NCBI GenBank assembly: GCA_015064095.1
Contig: SVSW01000002.1
Span: 27,002 to 91,001 of the forward strand
DNA: 64,000 nt
DNA from: Oscillospiraceae bacterium
GTDB taxonomy: Bacteria > Bacillota > Clostridia > Oscillospirales > CAG-272
Direction of reading: 5' to 3'
The position numbers were made by a program, and so were the translations under genes. The notes under the pieces are model-generated. The model saw only the letters and a program-made list of their open reading frames with translations. It was not told the DNA's origin and did not search any database. This document shows positions 8,155 through 56,460 of this stretch, one piece after another. Position 1 is the stretch's first letter, and each line of letters begins with the position of its first letter.

Positions 8155-9153
8155 ATGGTTTCCGAAAAAACTCAGAACAACGCCATGGCAAAGAGCTTTA
8201 AATCACCCCTCTTTTTGGTGATCGCCATTCTCTTCTCCGTGGTTACCGCCGCTTCTCTTATTGGATTGTTTACATCGGGATTTGAGTTCATGCTTCTCCT
8301 CCCCCTTGCATTCTCGATCGTTTCGACGGTTTTTGCATGGCTTCTCTATGCAACAGATTTCAGCGAAAAAAAGCTTAAAAATCTTCGTCTTCACTTCGCT
8401 TACCAGAAGATCATGACGACTATTTTGACTGTTCTTGTTTGCATTCTTGCAGCCGTCCTCATTATAGGTTGCATTTTCCTTACAACGCTTGCTGATGCGC
8501 TCAAGACCGAGCTCCTCCCCGTTCTTAAAGAGGAAATAAAGCCCATGCTCGAGGATATCGTTGAAAACGCAGACGCGTTCGAGAACGGTGAGGTCGATAT
8601 GGACGAAATGATGGCACAGCTTCCCCCCGAGATCTCGGAAATGCTCGGCGGCATGGGCGATTTTGACATGGTCGAAATGGCTCAGACCGCACTTGACGCA
8701 ATGGACGTCGTTATCGGAGTTATCGAGGCAGGATTCATTATCCTCACGATCATCGTTACCGTCGTTTGCGCTCTCGTGATCACCGCGTTCGTGCTTGTCG
8801 GCAAGGCTCTCAAAAAGACCTCTAAGTACATAAAAGCTCTTGCAGACGGCACCGATGCCGGCAAGAAGCCTCCGTTCGTCATTCTCTTTATCGGCGGCGG
8901 ACTTATTGCCATTGGCGGACTTCTCACCATCGGCTCCGACTTCATCGGCGCGCTCTCAATACTTGCCACGGCGGCACTTCTCATTCTCTTCGCTGTCTTC
9001 TTCAAGCAGCTCAATGCAGACCGCGACAGCTTCGTCGCCGAGGCTGCTGCTCCCGCAGTTGAGGAAGCTCCCGCAGTTGAGGAAGCTCCCGCAGTTGAGG
9101 AAGCTCCCGCAGTTGAGGAAGCTCCCGCAGTCGAGGAGACCCCTGCTGAATAA
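8155..9153 (+). CDS. hypothetical multi-pass membrane protein with acidic Pro/Ala/Glu repeat tail
   Basis: 332-aa ORF with several hydrophobic helices, an acidic loop, and a C-terminal (APAVEE)n tail. I recognised no family. Confidence 0.7.
   Translation: MVSEKTQNNAMAKSFKSPLFLVIAILFSVVTAASLIGLFTSGFEFMLLLPLAFSIVSTVFAWLLYATDFSEKKLKNLRLHFAYQKIMTTILTVLVCILAAVLIIGCIFLTTLADALKTELLPVLKEEIKPMLEDIVENADAFENGEVDMDEMMAQLPPEISEMLGGMGDFDMVEMAQTALDAMDVVIGVIEAGFIILTIIVTVVCALVITAFVLVGKALKKTSKYIKALADGTDAGKKPPFVILFIGGGLIAIGGLLTIGSDFIGALSILATAALLILFAVFFKQLNADRDSFVAEAAAPAVEEAPAVEEAPAVEEAPAVEEAPAVEETPAE
9049..9138 (+). repeat. 5 tandem copies of an 18-bp unit GCTCCCGCAGTTGAGGAA (in-frame, encodes APAVEE)
   Basis: Four identical units at 9049-9120 and a fifth, slightly diverged unit at 9121-9138. 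Confidence 0.9.
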
Positions 9154-9685
9154 CAGCACAAAAAGACCGGCACCACGTGCCGTTCTCTGAAATAAAAAAA
9201 CGCCTCCCGCCTCGGCGGAAAGCTCCAAAAATCAGAAATGACCCTTGACCGTGGTTTCTTTACACCGCAGCCAAGGGTCACTTCTGTTCACTCTTGATAT
9301 CTAACATCTTTTTATCCTCTCTTTCTTCGGTCTGTTTTTTACTTTCTCCTCGCGACTCCCTGACACTCCCAAAAAAACTTCTCTAGCGAGAATACCCTCT
9401 GTGTTTCTGACGCTCCGATCTGTAAAAAACGATCCTTCCGCTACCGACAAATTTCTCTCCTTGATTTATATAATGCGTATCACCGCCGTGTTTTTTCTCC
9501 CGTTTTGTCGGCTCGGAAGACAAGGGCTTTTGGTCTTTTTCTTATGTTTCCATTGGACCGTCCTCCTCTTTCTGTGTCTATATTATATCACGAAAATATG
9601 GAAAAAACAATTGGCAATATGTAAAAACTTTCAATTCCGTTTTTGTATAAGAGGCAGAAATTTACGTTATCTTACATTTTCCCTC

Positions 9686-9714
9686 TTGACGTACGCTAAA
9701 ATCTATGATATAAT
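9686..9714 (+). promoter_or_regulatory. near-consensus sigma-A promoter (TTGACG-17-TATAAT) with no ORF behind it
   Basis: TTGACG 9686-9691, TATAAT 9709-9714. Confidence 0.55.
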
Positions 9715-9720
9715 GATCTT

Positions 9721-9842
9721 GTTGTGGTGCTGCGGTCGGCTTTCGCAGGACCCGCAAACAAAGAACGCAAAAAACGGCGTATACCGCCGAAAATATAAGC
9801 CCGACAAAGCGCCGTACGCGCATTCAAGTACGGCGCTTTTTT
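9721..9842 (+). ncRNA. candidate orphan small RNA (about 120 nt), class unknown
   Basis: It is bounded by the promoter above and a strong terminator (AGCGCCGTAC..GTACGGCGCT + TTTTTT, 9808-9842). Internal hairpins are CTGCG/CGCAG and CGGCG/CGCCG. There is no RBS or credible ORF. Confidence 0.4.
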
Positions 9843-9956
9843 CATTGATCAAAAGCAAGGATTTTCGCCCCGAAAGGTCTTTTTTGCGCTCGGTTTTATC
9901 GAATTTTTGTGAAAATTGACGAAAGCCCTGTTTTTTGCCCCGTTTTGCCCCTTGCC

Positions 9957-10031
9957 TGTGGAAAACCCTGTGGAAAGTGTGGAAAACCTTGCAAATCAAG
10001 CCTCATTTCGTATATTTTTGCCTGTTGAAAA
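9957..10031 (+). promoter_or_regulatory. array of DnaA-box-like 9-mers
   Basis: TGTGGAAAA 9957-9965, TGTGGAAAG 9969-9977, TGTGGAAAA 9978-9986 and TGTTGAAAA 10023-10031. Each is 1-2 mismatches from TGTGGATAA, the complement of TTATCCACA. Confidence 0.5.
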
Positions 10032-10247
10032 CCCCGCTTTTTTCATCAAGGTAATTTTTTCCAAAAGATAAAATCTGTTTTTTTGCACAAATTTTACAAA
10101 CGAAGAAAAAAGCCTCACTTTCGAAGGGAGGTGGCGCGGCTTACCGTAACGCACTCTCCCTCAGTCACCTGCGGTGACAGCTCCCTCCCGGAGGGAGCCT
10201 TTTTTAGCTCACGCAAAACAAAAAGGAGCCGCTTTTTTGTCGGTGGG

Positions 10248-10721
10248 TCAATTCTCCCAAAGGTTGATGATCGTGATCCCCTTTTCCCTTTTCCTTTTTG
10301 CGTATTTATAAGCCTTATAAGCTCCGCTGCCCTCTTTGCTCTCCGCATAGAAGATAACAAGATCGCTTTGGTCTATCATTGCGCAGTTTCGAAAATAAAT
10401 ACTTTTATACCAGCCCTCAAAAGAAGGCGTAAGATATACGATTTCGTCATAGTCCTCGCGATTGAAATAACGCACGCTTTTTCGCAAATACCGTTCCTGC
10501 GAGGCGCAGTATATTCGTCTGATTTTCAGCTCGGAGTTTTCGTTTTTTATTTTTGTTACGATTTGCAAGCAAAGATCGTCAAAAGCGCCGTACCCTCCAA
10601 AATAAAAAGTACGGCAACCGCGCTCCACCGCTTTTGTGATCTCAGCGGTAGTCTTGGCACACAATCTGTCTGTTATATCAACATCACGGTGCCCAAAAAA
10701 AGAGCAAATCTTTTCTTCCAT
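10248..10721 (-). CDS. DUF1273 / SLOG family protein (YoqJ-like)
   Basis: The ORF starts MEEKICSFFGHRD (the C-x-F-x-GHR signature of the family). GGYGAFD is followed by a Rossmann-like alternation. The start is taken at ATG 10721 rather than the track start 10802. Confidence 0.7.
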   Translation of the reverse strand: MEEKICSFFGHRDVDITDRLCAKTTAEITKAVERGCRTFYFGGYGAFDDLCLQIVTKIKNENSELKIRRIYCASQERYLRKSVRYFNREDYDEIVYLTPSFEGWYKSIYFRNCAMIDQSDLVIFYAESKEGSGAYKAYKYAKRKREKGITIINLWEN

Positions 10722-10944
10722 ACAAAAAAATAAGGTGTCACCTCTTGCGAGATGACACCGTAGAATACCTCTCGCATAGTTGTCACACCATCTATAACCC
10801 ACTTCCCAGCCGATTATTGCGATACCGTATTTCTACCGAAATATAGTATGGTTGGGAAAAGGGTATAGTACCCCCTTGTAGGTTATTTTGATTATTAAGA
10901 TGATGTGACGTACATATTATATCACATTATTTTTCGTTTTTCAA
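10722..10944 (-). promoter_or_regulatory. promoter plus about 190-nt structured leader with intrinsic terminator (candidate riboswitch/attenuator)
   Basis: On the minus strand, -35 TTGAAA is the complement of 10939-10944 and TGaTATAAT is the complement of 10916-10921. A long imperfect helix pairs CUAUACCCUUUUCCCAACC with GGCUGGGAAGUGGGUUAUAG around an apical hairpin. The terminator GGTGTCATCTCGCAAGAGGTGACACC + T7 ends 3 nt before the ATG. An upstream GCGAGAGG segment can pair alternatively. Confidence 0.4.
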
Positions 10945-11033
10945 TACGGAGCAAAGATTTATTTGTAAAGTTTTGATATGTCTTTTATCTGAGCGGCAGC
11001 TGCCAAGAAAAACAACGAATCAAAGATACGCTT

Positions 11034-11067
11034 AAAAAAGCCCCCCTTTCAAGAGGGGGGCTTTTTT
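11034..11067 (-). terminator. rho-independent terminator
   Basis: GCCCCCCT..AGGGGGGC stem flanked by A6/T6. Confidence 0.75.
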
Positions 11068-13693
11068 ATATATGTATCGCTTCTCCGCCCGCCGAAATTA
11101 TTGATCTTTCGGCGGTTTCGGAAAAGTCCTGCGCCATGACCGTCAGCGGCTTTTCAAGCTCGCCCCGTCCGAGCACCTTGACGGCGTCCGCACGCCTCGG
11201 GATCAGTCCTTTCTCCCTTAATCCTTCAAGCGTGACCGTTTCGCCCCAATCAAAATTTTTTTCGATAACGTCAAGATTTATCTCCGCTTTTCTTTTGCCG
11301 CACGTTCTCTCGGCGCAAAAAATCTCCTCGTCCGGCGGTTCTTCTTCCGTTACTTCTTCTATTTCTTCTATTTCTTCTGTTTGTTCGGTTTCTTCGGCTT
11401 CTTCTTCGATCTCGGTCAGGGGTTCGTCGGGCGCGTCCGTTTTTCGAACAAACTTCAACGCAAGATATATAATGCACGCTATTGCCGCCGCGTTCATGAG
11501 CGTCAGCGCGCCGACCGTCAATCCTGCCGAGACGGGCGTGAAGAACGAAAACACTGCGAGCTTCTTTTTTCGCTTCAAGAGGAAAACAAGCACCGCGATC
11601 GCGCAAAGCTCGGCAAAAAGCGTTGCCGACAGCACAATAATTATCGGCGTGAGCTCGGCGACCGTTTTGGCGTCCTTTTCCTCTTTTCTTGTATCGCTCG
11701 CCGAGAACGACGCTTCAATATCGAGAACTGCCGCGTCCGCGATCGCCTTTATCGCCGACGGATCGCGACTTGCTTCTATCTTCCCTTTTGCCGCCTTGAC
11801 CGTTTCTTCGATCTCCCCTTTCGCCGTTTCGTCTATATCCTCGCGGCGGTGACGCGCGGCGTTTATCCTTGCCGACGCCTCGCCTCTGTCAAGCGCCGTC
11901 AGCGCCTCGTCAAGCTTTGATGCATCGGCCGAGATATGCTCCGCCGACGCTTCCGTTATCGCTTTGAGTGAATTTTTATCGCCGTTCAGAAAGCTCGGAT
12001 AAAAGCTCGCCGCCACTATCGCTTCATAGCGGCAAAAAAGCTTGTCCGATGCCTCGGCGATTGCGACCAGCCCGTCGGCTAACGCGATAAATTCCGCAAA
12101 ATTATCGGGGTCGTCCGACACCGAAAGCTCCTCGAGCCGAGCCGCAAGCAGCCCTTTTTGCCCCGCGCGCATATCGGTGCGCGAGCCGAGCGTTTGCCCG
12201 AGCCTTTCGAGTATTGCCGTGCGGTATTTTTTTGCAAGTCCGTCAAATTTCCCTTCGAGCGCGTCCCTCGCGTTCCCCGAAAGCCCGACGGCGTCCGCCA
12301 TTGCGGCAAGTATCAACGGCCGATCGGCAGAGCTTATGCCGCCTTTTTCCAATATTTCCTTATGGTCAAGCCGAAATCTTTTCGCCTCGGCGAGGTCAAC
12401 GGTTCGCAAAAGCTCCTCTCTTGCCTTTTCGTATTTTTCCTCTGCCGCAGCGGTCGATGCGGCTCTTATCGCAATATCAGCCGCCGAAAAAACGGCGTCC
12501 GCTTCGGACAAAAGCGGCGTCACTGTCAAATATTCCGAAATTTTCCGCTTTGCGGAGAGCAGATCTTCATAAAGCTCTATGCGCAGGCTCGCTTTCTTCC
12601 TTTCCCCCGAAAGCTCCTCGCGCGTGTCACAGCCGTCGAGCGTACCGCCGTCGCCATTGTACTCCGCTTCAAGCTCTGCCATTTTTTCGTCGTTTTTAAA
12701 TCCGCGGCGGCTTATTTCGTCCGCGATCCTATCCTTTGTCTCGGCGCGCTCAAGATCTGTCCCGTGGGTCAAAAACAGCCCCGACACCTCGGCTATCCCC
12801 TCGCTTGCCGTAAGCGCATCAAGCTCTGCGAGCTTTTTTGCCACGTACGAGGAATTGTATTTTTTCCCGTTGCCGAGATCCCCGACGAGCACCGTGAGCG
12901 CCTCTTTCATATGCGCGTTTATTTTTTCTTCGCTGTCCGATTCGCCCGTACCGAGATCTATTACCGCGAGCGCGTTCGCGATACACTCGTGCTCCGCGAT
13001 ATCTCCGTTCGGATAAATAAGATCAAACGCCGCCCGAAGCTCCCTCTTCGCCACGTCCTGCATTTTCCTTATTTTTACTGCCGACCGAGCTCCGTTTAAT
13101 ATCAGCTCGTATTCCGTTATTTCATACGGCCTCTTATCTGCGGGGACGTTATTTACGCGCGTTTTTGCTTCCTCGACGATCGCACACACGGCATCGGACG
13201 CCTCGCCGTCGGCAAGCTCGCAAAGCTTGCCTTCATATATCGCCGCTAGCAGGCGCGCGATAATTCCGCCGCCCGTTTTTTTCGCGGTCGCCGCGGCGTA
13301 AAGCTCCTGCCAATCCCCGTATGTTCCGCTATCAAGCTCTTCTTTGATGCTCGAATAAAGCTCGCTTACCGCCTCGTTTCCGTTATATAAAAACGCAAGG
13401 TACGCCGCGACAACGCCCCGATAGTATAGGAGCTTCGCCTGCTCGATCGGCAGGCTCAGATCAAGCGCATCGCGGTACGGGCTGATCGCAAGGCTCGCCC
13501 CGCCGCCCGACGGATATGCAAAATACTGCGTTTGCAGCTCTCCGAGCTTTGAATAAAGGCTCACTGTGCCGTCCGAATCCTCGGGTAAATGATCCAAAGA
13601 CGGCGAAAAGCTCTCCGCCGACGCGCCAAACGCCGCCGACGGTATCAAAAGAGCTACTAAAAAAATTATTATAAACTTCCTTGCTTTTTTCAT
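11066..13693 (-). CDS. large envelope protein: signal peptide, about 640-aa helical ectodomain, 2 TM helices, acidic linker, C-terminal uL15-like domain
   Basis: The N-terminus MKKARKFIIIFLVALLIPSAAFGASA is a signal peptide. TM segments lie near aa 690-760, followed by the linker EIEEEAEETEQTEEIEEIEEVTEEEPPDEE. The last approx 75 aa (INLDVIEKNF..GETVTLEGLREKGLIP..VKVLGRGELEKPLTVMAQDFSETAERSIISAGGEAIHI) match the C-terminal half of bacterial ribosomal protein uL15. Confidence 0.8.
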   Translation of the reverse strand: MKKARKFIIIFLVALLIPSAAFGASAESFSPSLDHLPEDSDGTVSLYSKLGELQTQYFAYPSGGGASLAISPYRDALDLSLPIEQAKLLYYRGVVAAYLAFLYNGNEAVSELYSSIKEELDSGTYGDWQELYAAATAKKTGGGIIARLLAAIYEGKLCELADGEASDAVCAIVEEAKTRVNNVPADKRPYEITEYELILNGARSAVKIRKMQDVAKRELRAAFDLIYPNGDIAEHECIANALAVIDLGTGESDSEEKINAHMKEALTVLVGDLGNGKKYNSSYVAKKLAELDALTASEGIAEVSGLFLTHGTDLERAETKDRIADEISRRGFKNDEKMAELEAEYNGDGGTLDGCDTREELSGERKKASLRIELYEDLLSAKRKISEYLTVTPLLSEADAVFSAADIAIRAASTAAAEEKYEKAREELLRTVDLAEAKRFRLDHKEILEKGGISSADRPLILAAMADAVGLSGNARDALEGKFDGLAKKYRTAILERLGQTLGSRTDMRAGQKGLLAARLEELSVSDDPDNFAEFIALADGLVAIAEASDKLFCRYEAIVAASFYPSFLNGDKNSLKAITEASAEHISADASKLDEALTALDRGEASARINAARHRREDIDETAKGEIEETVKAAKGKIEASRDPSAIKAIADAAVLDIEASFSASDTRKEEKDAKTVAELTPIIIVLSATLFAELCAIAVLVFLLKRKKKLAVFSFFTPVSAGLTVGALTLMNAAAIACIIYLALKFVRKTDAPDEPLTEIEEEAEETEQTEEIEEIEEVTEEEPPDEEIFCAERTCGKRKAEINLDVIEKNFDWGETVTLEGLREKGLIPRRADAVKVLGRGELEKPLTVMAQDFSETAERSIISAGGEAIHI

Positions 13694-51467: not shown

Positions 51468-51801
51468 ACCTGTTGAAAAGCTGTTAGTTCCCTGTTTAAA
51501 ACTTTTGACGGACACTGACAAAGCATGACGGCTAAAAAATTTATCCACATTTTGTCAACACTCAATCAAAAGCATTTCAACATGACAGACACTGCCAAAA
51601 AAATCCCGAAGATCAGCGCCTTCAAGGCTCTCTTGATTTTCCACATTTTCCAAAGCCCCTAATAATACGAAGACTGCTCTTTCATTCTTCCATTCATTCT
51701 TTCTTTCTTTCTTTTTTCGCGCACGCGCGTAGAGAAAAAAATAAAAAGTGTGGAAAACTTTGTAATTTAATCTATTAATAAAAACCGAAAGGAAAAATAA
51801 A
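51468..51801. other. candidate oriC segment (dnaA-dnaN intergenic) with DnaA boxes and AT-rich right end
   Basis: The boxes are a perfect TTATCCACA (51541-51549), TTTTCCACA (51637-51645), TGTGGAAAA (51748-51756) and TGTTGAAAA (51471-51479). The AT-rich stretch TTTGTAATTTAATCTATTAATAAAAA lies next to the last box. Confidence 0.6.
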
Positions 51802-52950
51802 ATGAAGATCATATTTAAAAGACAAACGGCTATTGCCTCAGCGTCCCCTCTTATGTGCGCGACCGCATCAAGATCCGTTCTCCCGATAGGCGACGGTATG
51901 CTCATTGAGGCTAAAAATCCAGATATATGCATCTTTACGACCTACGATCTCGAAAAGGGTATGCGTACCGCAGTCGAGGCAAAGGTCATAGAGGAAGGCT
52001 CTTATATCATAAGCGCTCAGAAGTTTATCCAGACTTTAAAGGTCATGGAAGGTGATGAGGTAACACTCACCGTTGACGATAAGCTCTCCGCTTGCATCTC
52101 ATCGGGCACATCAACTCACCGTATGTCGGCACTTCCGAGCTCCGATTTTCCGAAGCTGCCCGATCTTAAAAGTCCTCTCGGCTACGAGCTCCCTGCCGAC
52201 ACTCTCAAAAAAATGCTCGCAAAAACCATGTATGCGATCGGTGTAAACGATCAGCGACCCGTTCTCAACGGCTGCTTCTTCCGCGTGACGGACGACCGTT
52301 TGCTTCTCGTTTCCTGTGACAGCTTCCGCCTCGCTCGCTGCGCAACTCATATGACGGTTGATAACCGCAACGACGACGGCGAATATCTCCATTATTCGTT
52401 TATTATGCCCGTAAGAACGGTTAATGAGCTTTATAAGCTGCTCCCCGACAGCGACGAGAATATACGCATCTATATGATGAGAAAGCATATGGTCATAATG
52501 CTCGGCGAAATTACATTCTTCTCAAGCCTTATTGAGGGTGAGTACATCGATTACGACCGAATTATAATAAAGACCCACAGAATTTCGATAGAGACAGACC
52601 GCGCCGCTTTAATTTCCGCGCTTGAGCGCGCTGCCCTCGTTACAGAGGAGCGCGTTGCCGGATCCGTACGTTCTCACGTTAAGCTTGAGATCGCCGGAAA
52701 TTCTCTTAAAATTTCCGCAAATTCTTCGACAGGCAGCACCTTTGACGAGATCTTCGTCAAGCACGAGGGTGAGGATATAATCATCGCCTTCAATAACAGA
52801 TATCTTCTCGAAAGCCTGCGCGCCTGCACCGGCGAAAAAATAAAGATATCGCTCTCAACCCCGCTTTCAAGCATCAATATCGAGCCCGTTGACGGCGAGG
52901 AGAACGAAGAAGACATCTTCATGCTCCTGCCCGTTAAAATGAAGGATTAA
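51802..52950 (+). CDS. dnaN: DNA polymerase III subunit beta
   Basis: 382 aa at the conserved position after dnaA with a sliding-clamp three-domain pattern. Confidence 0.95.
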   Translation: MKIIFKRQTAIASASPLMCATASRSVLPIGDGMLIEAKNPDICIFTTYDLEKGMRTAVEAKVIEEGSYIISAQKFIQTLKVMEGDEVTLTVDDKLSACISSGTSTHRMSALPSSDFPKLPDLKSPLGYELPADTLKKMLAKTMYAIGVNDQRPVLNGCFFRVTDDRLLLVSCDSFRLARCATHMTVDNRNDDGEYLHYSFIMPVRTVNELYKLLPDSDENIRIYMMRKHMVIMLGEITFFSSLIEGEYIDYDRIIIKTHRISIETDRAALISALERAALVTEERVAGSVRSHVKLEIAGNSLKISANSSTGSTFDEIFVKHEGEDIIIAFNNRYLLESLRACTGEKIKISLSTPLSSINIEPVDGEENEEDIFMLLPVKMKD

Positions 52951-54085: not shown

Positions 54086-56330
<2,245 letters not shown>

Positions 56331-56342
56331 GTTTTCAACACC

Positions 56343-56460
56343 TGTTGATAACTCTGTGGAAAAACAGACAAGATCAAAATTAAAAATTTCGTAAATATAC
56401 AGTATTTGCACGCTTTTCCGTAATTATTCACATTTGTGGAAAATTTTTCGGTTTTCCACA
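56343..56460. promoter_or_regulatory. four DnaA-box-like 9-mers in the gyrB-gyrA spacer
   Basis: TGTTGATAA 56343-56351, TGTGGAAAA 56355-56363, TGTGGAAAA 56435-56443 and the inverted TTTTCCACA 56452-56460. Confidence 0.5.

Follow-up and report, generated by a model that had tools for sequence, protein, structure and literature searches.

What governs the expression of a gene that is separated from its promoter by a long, structured and untranslated RNA? This question is raised by a locus in the genome of an Oscillospiraceae bacterium (assembly GCA_015064095.1), from which we analysed a 64,000-nucleotide (nt) stretch of contig SVSW01000002.1 (positions 27,002 to 91,001; hereafter "the window"). 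On the minus strand of the window, an untranslated leader of about 185 nt lies between a promoter and the AUG of a gene for a YpsA-like SLOG protein. We propose, with a probability of about 0.7, that this leader is a cis-acting transcription-attenuation element belonging to an RNA family outside Rfam 15, and that its segments switch an intrinsic terminator by means of a relay. The relay would comprise five segments and four mutually exclusive helices in series: P4 (segments 1 and 2), a pseudoknot (2 and 3), an antiterminator (3 and 4) and the terminator (4 and 5). A preliminary description of this DNA had envisaged an attenuator in which an upstream segment simply competes with the terminator. 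The mutually exclusive, conditional folds of that proposal find support in conservation, covariation and recurrence in diverged lineages, and its simple choice is here replaced by the relay. Throughout, L-numbers (e.g. L002, L063) denote homologous loci or contigs, and types A, B and C are sequence types of the leader.

The leader and its promoter

The promoter (10944-10916, minus strand) has the form TTGAAA-17-TATAAT with a TG extension and matches 11 of 12 consensus positions. Its -35 hexamer, TTGAAA (10939..10944), is found at the same position in about 45 homologous loci, and the placement of the extended -10 element, TGaTATAAT (10916..10924), is conserved across them. We propose that this is a constitutive promoter of the sigma-A type; transcription would begin 6-7 nt downstream of the -10 element, at the foot of helix P1. 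At its 3' end the leader carries an 11-base-pair (bp) terminator and a U-tract, and the AUG (10721) lies 2 nt beyond. The preliminary description had recognised the same promoter and had put the leader at about 190 nt, close to the length measured here; its gap of 3 nt between terminator and AUG is corrected to 2.

The leader is a real feature, and its structure is not due to chance. A 201-nt stretch containing it has a minimum free energy (MFE) of -78.1 kcal/mol, compared to -44.3 +/- 4.4 kcal/mol for dinucleotide shuffles (z = -7.7), and none of 200 such shuffles folded as stably. RNAalifold, applied to a MAFFT alignment, recovered P1 and the terminator, both with compensatory changes. A covariance model was then built from 12 window-type sequences and a hand-drawn structure, and 47 leaders were realigned to it. 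In this alignment, to which the percentages of paired cells given below refer, 95.3% of cells are paired and 36 of the 53 pairs show compensatory (both-side) change. The covariation score is 0.411, as against 0.04-0.07 for controls in which the partners are displaced by 1-3 columns, and none of 500 shuffles equalled it. The check by covariation that the preliminary description had suggested thus bears out the helices across 47 homologous leaders, and the result supports P1, P2, the P2a hairpin, P3, the outer part of P4 and the terminator.

The terminator hairpin, GGUGUCAUCUC-GCAA-GAGGUGACACC (10734..10759, minus strand), has 11 bp, six of them GC, beneath a GCAA loop, and is directly followed by the U-tract UUAUUUUUUU (10724..10733). 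Its energy in the window is -18.4 kcal/mol; 99.8% of its cells are paired, and three of its pairs are compensatory. A GC-rich hairpin with an adjoining U-tract, on a stem that covaries, is the signature of an intrinsic (Rho-independent) terminator, and the one earlier reported ahead of the AUG is therefore confirmed at 10759..10724.

Segment 3 and the competing helices

The heart of the proposed relay is segment 3 (GCGAGAGGUAUUCUAC, 16 nt, 10760..10775, minus strand), which is complementary both to segment 2 and to the 5' strand of the terminator. Segment 2 (GGUAGAAAUACGGUAUCGCA, 10818..10837) comprises the apical loop and 3' strand of P4 together with the junction J4/3, and contains the invariants GGUAG, UAC and AUCGC; segment 1 (AUACUAUAUUUC, 10838..10849) is the 5' strand of P4, the distal part of which is AU-rich. 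Backward pairing of segment 3 with the tip of P4 yields the pseudoknot, an anti-antiterminator; forward pairing with the terminator 5' strand yields the antiterminator. Segment 3 itself looks like a copy of the P4 5' strand.

In the window, the pseudoknot contacts are GUAG:CUAC in the loop, AAUAC:GUAUU, and UCGCA:UGCGA in J4/3. Together they make one interrupted 14-bp helix with a duplex energy of -14.8 kcal/mol; a kissing loop (GUAG:CUAC) and a UCGC:GCGA contact, which had been considered as independent elements, proved to be the two ends of this helix. Pseudoknot energies range from -13 to -21 kcal/mol. When 13 pseudoknot pairs are counted across the 47 leaders, 97.6% are paired and three are compensatory; 1-2 of 500 shuffles are as good, and sliding the register lowers the paired fraction to 19-61%. 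Further, the best duplex of segment 3 with the whole upstream domain falls on the P4 loop and 3' strand in all 14 representatives examined across the diverged lineages. The middle of the pseudoknot reads GACAC:GUGUU in L027, UAUAUACC:GGUGUAUA in L034 and AUGUGUA:UACGCAU in L063, and in type C there are 14-15 contiguous bp, AAAAAUGCAAAUUCC:GGRGUUUGCGUUUUU. Both alternative pairings of segment 3 recur, with different sequences, in every diverged lineage examined.

The antiterminator hairpin, GCGAGAGGUAUU-CUAC-GGUGUCAUCUCGC (10747..10775, minus strand; -11.0 kcal/mol), shares 13 nt (GGUGUCAUCUCGC) with the terminator and is the MFE fold of the nascent transcript, taken up to the terminator loop, in every homologue. 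The pairing of GCGAGA with UCUCGC, which had been noticed earlier, is thus predicted in all of them and is extended here. Across lineages, the antiterminator has energies of about -8 to -14 kcal/mol and the terminator of about -11.5 to -18 kcal/mol. In L063, the antiterminator 5', terminator 5' and terminator 3' strands have shifted together (to GCGGA, UCCGC and GGAGCG), and the antiterminator is kept with different sequences in L063, L033, L038, L041, L044 and all members of type C. Terminator and antiterminator therefore appear to form a mutually exclusive platform by virtue of their complementarity, not of column-wise covariation. A role for the 3' strand of P1 as the antiterminator strand was also considered and rejected: only in type A can it pair with the terminator 5' strand, type B has lost this ability, and the MFE folds of the nascent transcript leave P1 intact.

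Because segments 2, 3 and 4 each have two pairing partners, the extreme conservation of their sequences is accounted for. The conserved nucleotides of the window type are likely explained for the most part by these multiple partners and do not suggest an obvious ligand pocket; they are not kept in the diverged type.

Architecture of the upstream domain

Upstream of segment 3, the leader is predicted to form a very stable domain of about 128 nt, a three-way junction that is closed by P1-P2 and carries P2a and a P3-P4 arm. P1, the 12-bp closing helix, pairs GUCACAUCAUCU (10898..10909) with AGAUGGUGUGAC (10782..10793); compensatory change is seen at seven of its 12 pairs, with pairing in about 98% of cells. 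It is followed by an asymmetric internal loop, J1/2 (UAAUAAUCAAA, 10887..10897), whose AAUAR core is shared by types A and B and by most of type C; in L136 this core lies within P1. In P2, AUAACCUAC (10878..10886) pairs with GUGGGUUAU (10794..10802), and all nine pairs are compensatory (96% of cells paired). The same holds for the nine pairs of P3 (95%), which joins UUCCCAACC (10850..10858) to GGCUGGGAA (10803..10811). Between them, the P2a hairpin GGGUA-CUA-UACCC (10861..10873) covaries, for example to GGCGU/GCGCC and GGCAU/AUGCC; it is missing from the rod-type members L063, L075, L082 and L030b. Three of the four outer pairs of P4 covary. The P4 hairpin on its own has an energy of -7.6 kcal/mol in the window and of -3 to -11 kcal/mol across lineages, its distal helix being AU-rich and weak. 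Between P1 and segment 3 is a conserved linker, AACUAU (10776..10781); most lineages have a CAAC-like linker after P1, and L082 and L030b have CAGCAG and AGCAAA, respectively.

This architecture partly agrees with the preliminary description. The apical hairpin reported there (AUACU/GGUAU with UAUUUC-GGUA-GAAAUA) is P4. The long imperfect helix said to enclose it survives in its inner half (UUCCCAACC:GGCUGGGAA, that is, P3); for the outer half, CUAUACCC:GGGUUAUAG, pairing reaches 72% of cells, compared to 96% for the alternative P2 (GUGGGUUAU:AUAACCUAC), in which GGGUA-CUA-UACCC is left to form its own hairpin, P2a. The 12-bp P1 (GUCACAUCAUCU:AGAUGGUGUGAC) and the ability of the P4 tip to pair at long range with the antiterminator 5' strand had not been noticed. 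A mini-hairpin at the apex of P4, GGUA-GNNA-UACC, was discarded: it is paired in 84% of cells but does no better than shuffles, and L016 and L027 disrupt it while compensating the pseudoknot. It is possible as an alternative conformer.

Searches for known RNA families

At gathering thresholds, the 4227 models of Rfam 15 identified two transfer RNAs in the window and nothing else. When matches up to an expect value (E) of 10 were admitted between 10600 and 11100, the leader drew only junk (IsrM at 17.8 bits and BSR0602 at 10.4 bits). On eight homologous loci representing all types, Rfam found ribosomal and transfer RNA only, with nothing meaningful on the L082 leader. These scans, which had been recommended in the preliminary description, uphold its failure to match the leader to known riboswitch or T-box consensus sequences. 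A T-box identity was rejected, as RF00230 gave no match at E <= 10 and the alignment contains no AGGGUGGNACCGCG-like sequence. A PyrR-binding site was likewise set aside; the only match to RF00515 (22.7 bits) lies on the plus strand at 10977-11069, and corresponds to the terminator of the upstream gene, not to the leader. Our literature search found nothing relevant that ties DUF1273/YpsA to a riboswitch or RNA motif, and nothing relevant on the core sequences. The leader is thus apparently a member of an uncatalogued family within a known kind of terminator-controlling leader.

Proposed mechanism

We propose that the fate of segment 3 decides the outcome of transcription. When captured by the P4 tip, it would leave the terminator to form, and RNA polymerase would stop 2 nt before the AUG. 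When free, it would pair into the antiterminator, which would form first, and the polymerase would read into the SLOG gene. A trans-acting effector, be it a small molecule or an RNA-binding protein, could cause read-through by stabilising P4 or by masking the toeholds. From the complementarities, conservation and covariation that we observe, we infer such switching, its direction and the existence of an effector. Termination is probably the default state, at about 60:40 against the opposite sign; that is, the gene would be off by default. This preference has three grounds: the AU-rich tip of P4 is inherently a weaker helix than the pseudoknot, both toeholds (GUAG in the loop and UCGCA in J4/3) are single-stranded in the folded domain, and GCGA emerges about 20 nt before its antiterminator partner.

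Several observations weigh against this proposal. Termination, read-through and switching are all deduced from sequence. The terminator is thermodynamically the best structure in every state, and regulation must therefore be kinetic. No set of nucleotides that could pass for a ligand pocket is shared by all types. When segment 3 is shuffled at constant composition, it still lands on the P4 tip in 14-72% of trials, such that location alone is weak evidence in any one lineage, and the per-lineage z-scores of the pseudoknot energy are modest (-0.8 to -4.2). The case for the pseudoknot thus draws on its recurrence together with the compensatory changes; no single lineage carries it. In types A and B the antiterminator is near-invariant, with 97% of cells paired and no compensatory pairs; as most of the pseudoknot is near-invariant as well, column-wise covariation is thin. 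The covariance-model alignment, moreover, was fitted to the same structure that it then tested. Finally, the genes behind leaders of types A and B lack a Shine-Dalgarno sequence after the terminator, which is odd for expression that follows read-through. For the SLOG gene of the window, none occurs at normal spacing; the only candidate, GAGGUGA, is 16 nt upstream and sits within the terminator 3' strand (window 10722-10745, minus strand). Other first-in-operon genes of the window have Shine-Dalgarno sequences of the AGGAG type 6-9 nt upstream, and in type C a normal one is present after the terminator.

Distribution of the leader

The window protein has 469 relatives in a large protein collection, and a scan of one genome per species yielded 64 loci. 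In about 45 of these 64, BLAST located the leader, promoter included, directly upstream of the gene, and the conserved leader that was to be looked for before SLOG homologues is thus present. All hosts of these loci are uncultured Clostridia represented by metagenome-assembled genomes from gut or rumen, with labels such as "Eubacteriales", Candidatus Scatosoma, Christensenellaceae and Acutalibacteraceae. The 3' 64 nt of the leader are 93-100% identical (consensus GUGUGACAACUAYGCGAGAGGUAUUCUACGGUGUCAUCUCGCAAGGGGUGGCACCUUAUUUUUU), compared to only 56-80% identity for the downstream proteins. A scan of JGI metagenomes for types A and B gave a single match, in which the leader is likewise upstream of the gene; the corresponding scan of viral contigs found nothing.

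These leaders fall into two sequence types, A (window-like) and B (L002-like), which coexist in the same genomes before paralogous genes (L002 with L004, and L006 with L040). Tandem leaders occur in four loci. In L043 (1045-1484), type A is followed by type B; in L021 (2442-2991), type B with a 5' gene fragment of about 120 nt precedes type A with an intact gene; in these two loci and in L019 (2486-2980), each copy has its own promoter. The fourth, L079 (1-388), begins with the terminator of an upstream copy. Other relatives of the gene have no leader. L014, L015, L029 and L055 have a plain promoter and a strong Shine-Dalgarno sequence, and further leaderless relatives have a divergent gene of the Xre type, encoding a helix-turn-helix (HTH) protein, with inverted-repeat operators flanking the promoter. 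In L056-L061, L067-L074, L077, L078 and L080, leaderless SLOG or zinc-ribbon genes are accompanied by divergent Xre HTH genes of 78-85 codons (HTH_26/HTH_3). The Xre arrangement looks like an alternative, protein-based solution to the same regulatory problem. The gene family is thus regulated in several ways.

The more diverged type C was found through weak matches to the covariance model and a descriptor search. It precedes distant SLOG homologues in L062, L066, L075/76 and L079, whose products are 25-32% identical to the window protein; the L063 protein is 43-49% identical to the rest. In L030 (4271-4438) and L082 (632-786), the leader stands before a gene for a membrane protein of about 200 residues with a C-terminal zinc ribbon. 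In L082 (801-2188), this 195-residue protein (P0260), which is present on more than 24 contigs, is followed on the same strand by a 279-residue TIR-domain protein. Three IMG/VR viral contigs also carry the RNA class, before genes for small Cys-rich membrane proteins or a CxxC lipoprotein: L136 (5760-6371), L172 (6436-7493) and L290 (about 9700-9880, minus strand, in plus-strand coordinates). Loose pattern searches of viral sequences returned mostly chance matches, and these three were the only ones accepted as real. In L136 and L172, the leader region is convergent with a gene for a protein of 2,400-2,700 residues; that of L172, the one scanned, matches the large-polyvalent-protein domains LPD1, LPD38 and ART-PolyVal.

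The 3' domains of type C are plainly homologous across SLOG, zinc-ribbon and viral members, and the P2a hairpin sequence is common to chromosomal and viral members; several others are simple rods that lack P2a. Type C segment 3 has a run of five to six U just ahead of the terminator. The downstream genes (YpsA-like SLOG proteins, zinc-ribbon membrane proteins, and Cys-rich membrane proteins or lipoproteins of phages) show no clear metabolic or transport theme, and their diversity shows that the RNA is not specific to SLOG. This weakens the tie to the nucleotide chemistry of SLOG proteins that was drawn in the preliminary description, given that the RNA class also precedes unrelated membrane, zinc-ribbon and phage genes. 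All members may nonetheless respond to one trans effector, which could be a small molecule, a protein or a state of the polymerase.

The regulated gene and its neighbourhood

The SLOG gene (10248..10721, minus strand) encodes 157 residues. An alignment of 23 homologous proteins places the N-terminus, MEEKICSFFGHR, at AUG 10721, the true start; a longer open reading frame (ORF) from GTG 10802 is therefore an artefact. The protein scores 22.7 bits against the Pfam family YpsA/DUF1273 (PF06908), under the curated gathering cut-off of 27.7, and sequence searches of NCBIfam and the Protein Data Bank gave no match. Its AlphaFold (AF2) model has a pLDDT (predicted local distance difference test) of 88.5; the top Foldseek match in the Protein Data Bank is 2nx2, B. 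subtilis YpsA (E 1.1e-7, TM 0.68), followed by ShosA, LOG proteins, the SLOG domains of TRPM8 and DprA. The DUF1273 (SLOG) label given earlier thus holds for the fold as predicted, not for the Pfam score. We classify the protein on its modelled structure as a YpsA-clade SLOG protein, in a distinct subfamily with GWYKSIYFRNCAMID and SGAYKAYKYA motifs. It has the fold of B. subtilis YpsA along with its GHR and GGxGxD-like motifs, but only 15% sequence identity, and no synteny with gpsB was found within the window. The models of PADLOC 2.0 recognised no defence family in the window protein, P0260, the L030 zinc-ribbon protein, P0124 or P0137. In B. subtilis, threefold overproduction of YpsA blocks FtsZ-ring assembly and cell division (PMC6459960), which makes tight, default-off control plausible for its relatives.

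Directly upstream of the leader promoter is a gene (11066-13693, minus strand) for an 875-residue membrane protein, with its own terminator at about 11041-11060. The last 70 or so residues of the protein match Pfam Ribosomal_L27A/uL15 (60 bits), an odd fusion. Past the stop codon of the SLOG gene (10100-10245, minus strand) is a pile of GC-rich hairpins (GGCUCCCUCCGGGAGGGAGCU, GUCACCGCAGGUGAC), followed by a terminator-like hairpin and U-tract; a similar pile is located upstream of the L082 leader. Further downstream, at 8155-9153 (plus strand), a gene encodes a 332-residue multi-pass membrane protein that ends in five tandem APAVEE-like repeats and has no homology to the zinc-ribbon membrane family associated with the leader (BLASTP E = 7). 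The window also holds 45 DnaA-box-like 9-mers (TTWTCCACA with at most one mismatch) where 21 are expected, with clusters at 9957-10089, 51471-52033 and 56309-56460. The first of these, with six boxes, falls within about 1 kb of ORF-poor sequence (9300-10247) immediately beyond the 3' end of the SLOG gene; it may represent a cluster of DnaA boxes or belong to an origin region.

Alternative explanations

Attenuation by a leader peptide can be rejected. The upstream in-frame ORF (GTG 10802) and the AUG within CUAUGCG are not conserved, with ACG variants occurring; the length of the U-tract shifts the frame; conservation extends to all three codon positions; and an AUG in the P4 loop of type C is replaced by ACG in L172. 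A metabolite riboswitch appears unlikely, even though much about the leader resembles one. The three-way junction would then be an aptamer for a nucleotide ligand related to SLOG function, such as nicotinamide adenine dinucleotide (NAD+), adenosine diphosphate ribose (ADP-ribose) or a cyclic nucleotide, and the ligand would set the choice of terminator. Such a device would be expected to have a multi-stem junction with strong covariation and conserved elements (AAUAR, GGUAG and AUCGC) above an expression platform with mutually exclusive folds, as this leader does; leaders are arranged in tandem, and the SLOG genes and the TIR-containing operon downstream belong to domain families linked to NAD and ADP-ribose. 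However, GGUAG, AUCGC and GCGAGAGG, which types A and B conserve, pair with each other, and type C substitutes different, mutually complementary sequences for them. P2a and the three-way junction are absent in the rods L063, L075, L082, L030b and L290, the other downstream genes are uncharacterised membrane and zinc-ribbon proteins without a metabolic link, and no known riboswitch model matches. The distribution of type C thus weakens a strict aptamer reading, because no pocket-like set of nucleotides is common to all types. What all members do have (a long stable stem, the AU-rich P4 tip, segment 3, and the antiterminator/terminator pair, these being the sole universals) is compatible with an attenuator that needs no effector. 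The race between pseudoknot and antiterminator would then fix the level of read-through as a constitutive damper, or would let it be modulated globally by polymerase speed, nucleoside triphosphates, temperature, NusA, NusG or RNase III. The run of five to six U in type C segment 3 before the terminator and the occurrence in both host and phage contexts fit this idea, which we judge quite unlikely, since a four-helix relay whose upstream domain shows such extreme conservation and covariation, down to a P2a hairpin sequence common to chromosomal and viral members, would be an elaborate way to make a passive damper, and the dedicated Xre repressors found elsewhere in the gene families suggest signal-specific control.

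A further reading, highly doubtful in our estimation, is that the RNA senses a nucleotide-derived or infection-linked signal (e.g., a derivative of NAD+ or ADP-ribose, or a phage-altered RNA polymerase) and switches on silent, potentially toxic effectors. Were this true, the leader would be the first riboswitch-like control of conflict-system genes, exerted through a toehold-pseudoknot relay; in gut Clostridia and their phages, its targets would be YpsA-like SLOG proteins, membrane proteins linked to TIR, and phage "moron" membrane proteins. It is very improbable that the leader is instead a stand-alone small RNA gene, perhaps a type III-style RNA antitoxin or partner of the SLOG protein, with the terminator determining the balance between RNA and mRNA. 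The strong promoter and strong terminator of the RNA, the promoters of the individual tandem copies, the lack of a Shine-Dalgarno sequence between terminator and AUG, the resemblance of the layout to toxIN and the toxicity of overproduced YpsA (PMC6459960) all invite the comparison. Yet Tandem Repeats Finder returned 0 rows between 10650 and 11000, and hence no direct repeats in the RNA; the conserved, covarying antiterminator implies regulated read-through; the RNA class also precedes unrelated genes with normal Shine-Dalgarno sequences; and SLOG is not an endoribonuclease fold. The distribution of type C counts against this explanation, as it does against autoregulation, in which the SLOG protein would bind its own leader. 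The strict adjacency of leader and gene in about 50 loci, and the pairing of two leader types with two paralogous genes per genome (L002/L004 and L006/L040), are what one would expect of autoregulation, but the homologous 3' domain stands before genes for zinc-ribbon and phage membrane proteins as well, and several of these loci have no SLOG gene within the few kilobases examined. We consider autoregulation extremely improbable.

Significance and comparison with known systems

If the attenuation relay is as we propose, a well-supported and apparently uncatalogued family joins the leaders that control terminators. Its design is unusual in that the tip of an internal hairpin serves as a toehold-armed anti-antiterminator, with four mutually exclusive helices in series; it would be a compact natural instance of a strand-displacement RNA switch. 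The gene set is also unusual, comprising YpsA-clade SLOG proteins (toxic division inhibitors when over-made in Bacillus) and TIR-linked and phage membrane proteins. The leader would offer an experimental way to learn when such orphan genes are expressed in uncultured gut Clostridia and their phages, and the identity of the effector would reveal the signal behind the poorly understood YpsA family.

The leader may be compared to four kinds of known system. With type III toxin-antitoxin loci (toxIN) it has in common the order of promoter, non-coding RNA, terminator and potentially toxic gene; it differs in that its RNA has no repeats, its gene encodes a SLOG fold in place of an endoribonuclease fold, and it possesses a conserved antiterminator. 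It is like T-box leaders in size, Firmicute host, terminator/antiterminator platform and tandem occurrence, and unlike them in having no T-box sequence, specifier-loop architecture or Stem I motifs. SAM-I-type "off" riboswitches and the PyrR-dependent pyr attenuators also have a constitutive promoter, a 5' leader and a terminator that abuts the gene. In them, too, the antiterminator shares the terminator 5' strand and a third, upstream element sequesters the antiterminator 5' strand. That sequestering partner is a P1 strand in SAM-I and a local, protein-bound hairpin in pyr leaders, whereas here it would be the tip of an internal hairpin, acting through a pseudoknot, with P4 as a fourth competing helix. 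The Rfam models for PyrR, SAM and T-box elements do not match the leader.

The ZTP and guanidine-IV/mepA riboswitches have no sequence or model similarity to the leader, but resemble it in that a distal hairpin loop pairs with a sequence in or beside the expression platform. In those riboswitches, read-through is the state that the contact stabilises, and the ligand is bound at the contact itself. The counterpart here is GUAG:CUAC with UCGCA:UGCGA, which reaches 14-15 bp in type C. By contrast to the riboswitches, this contact would take the antiterminator strand out of play and compete with P4, and its length is sufficient for it to form with no ligand present.

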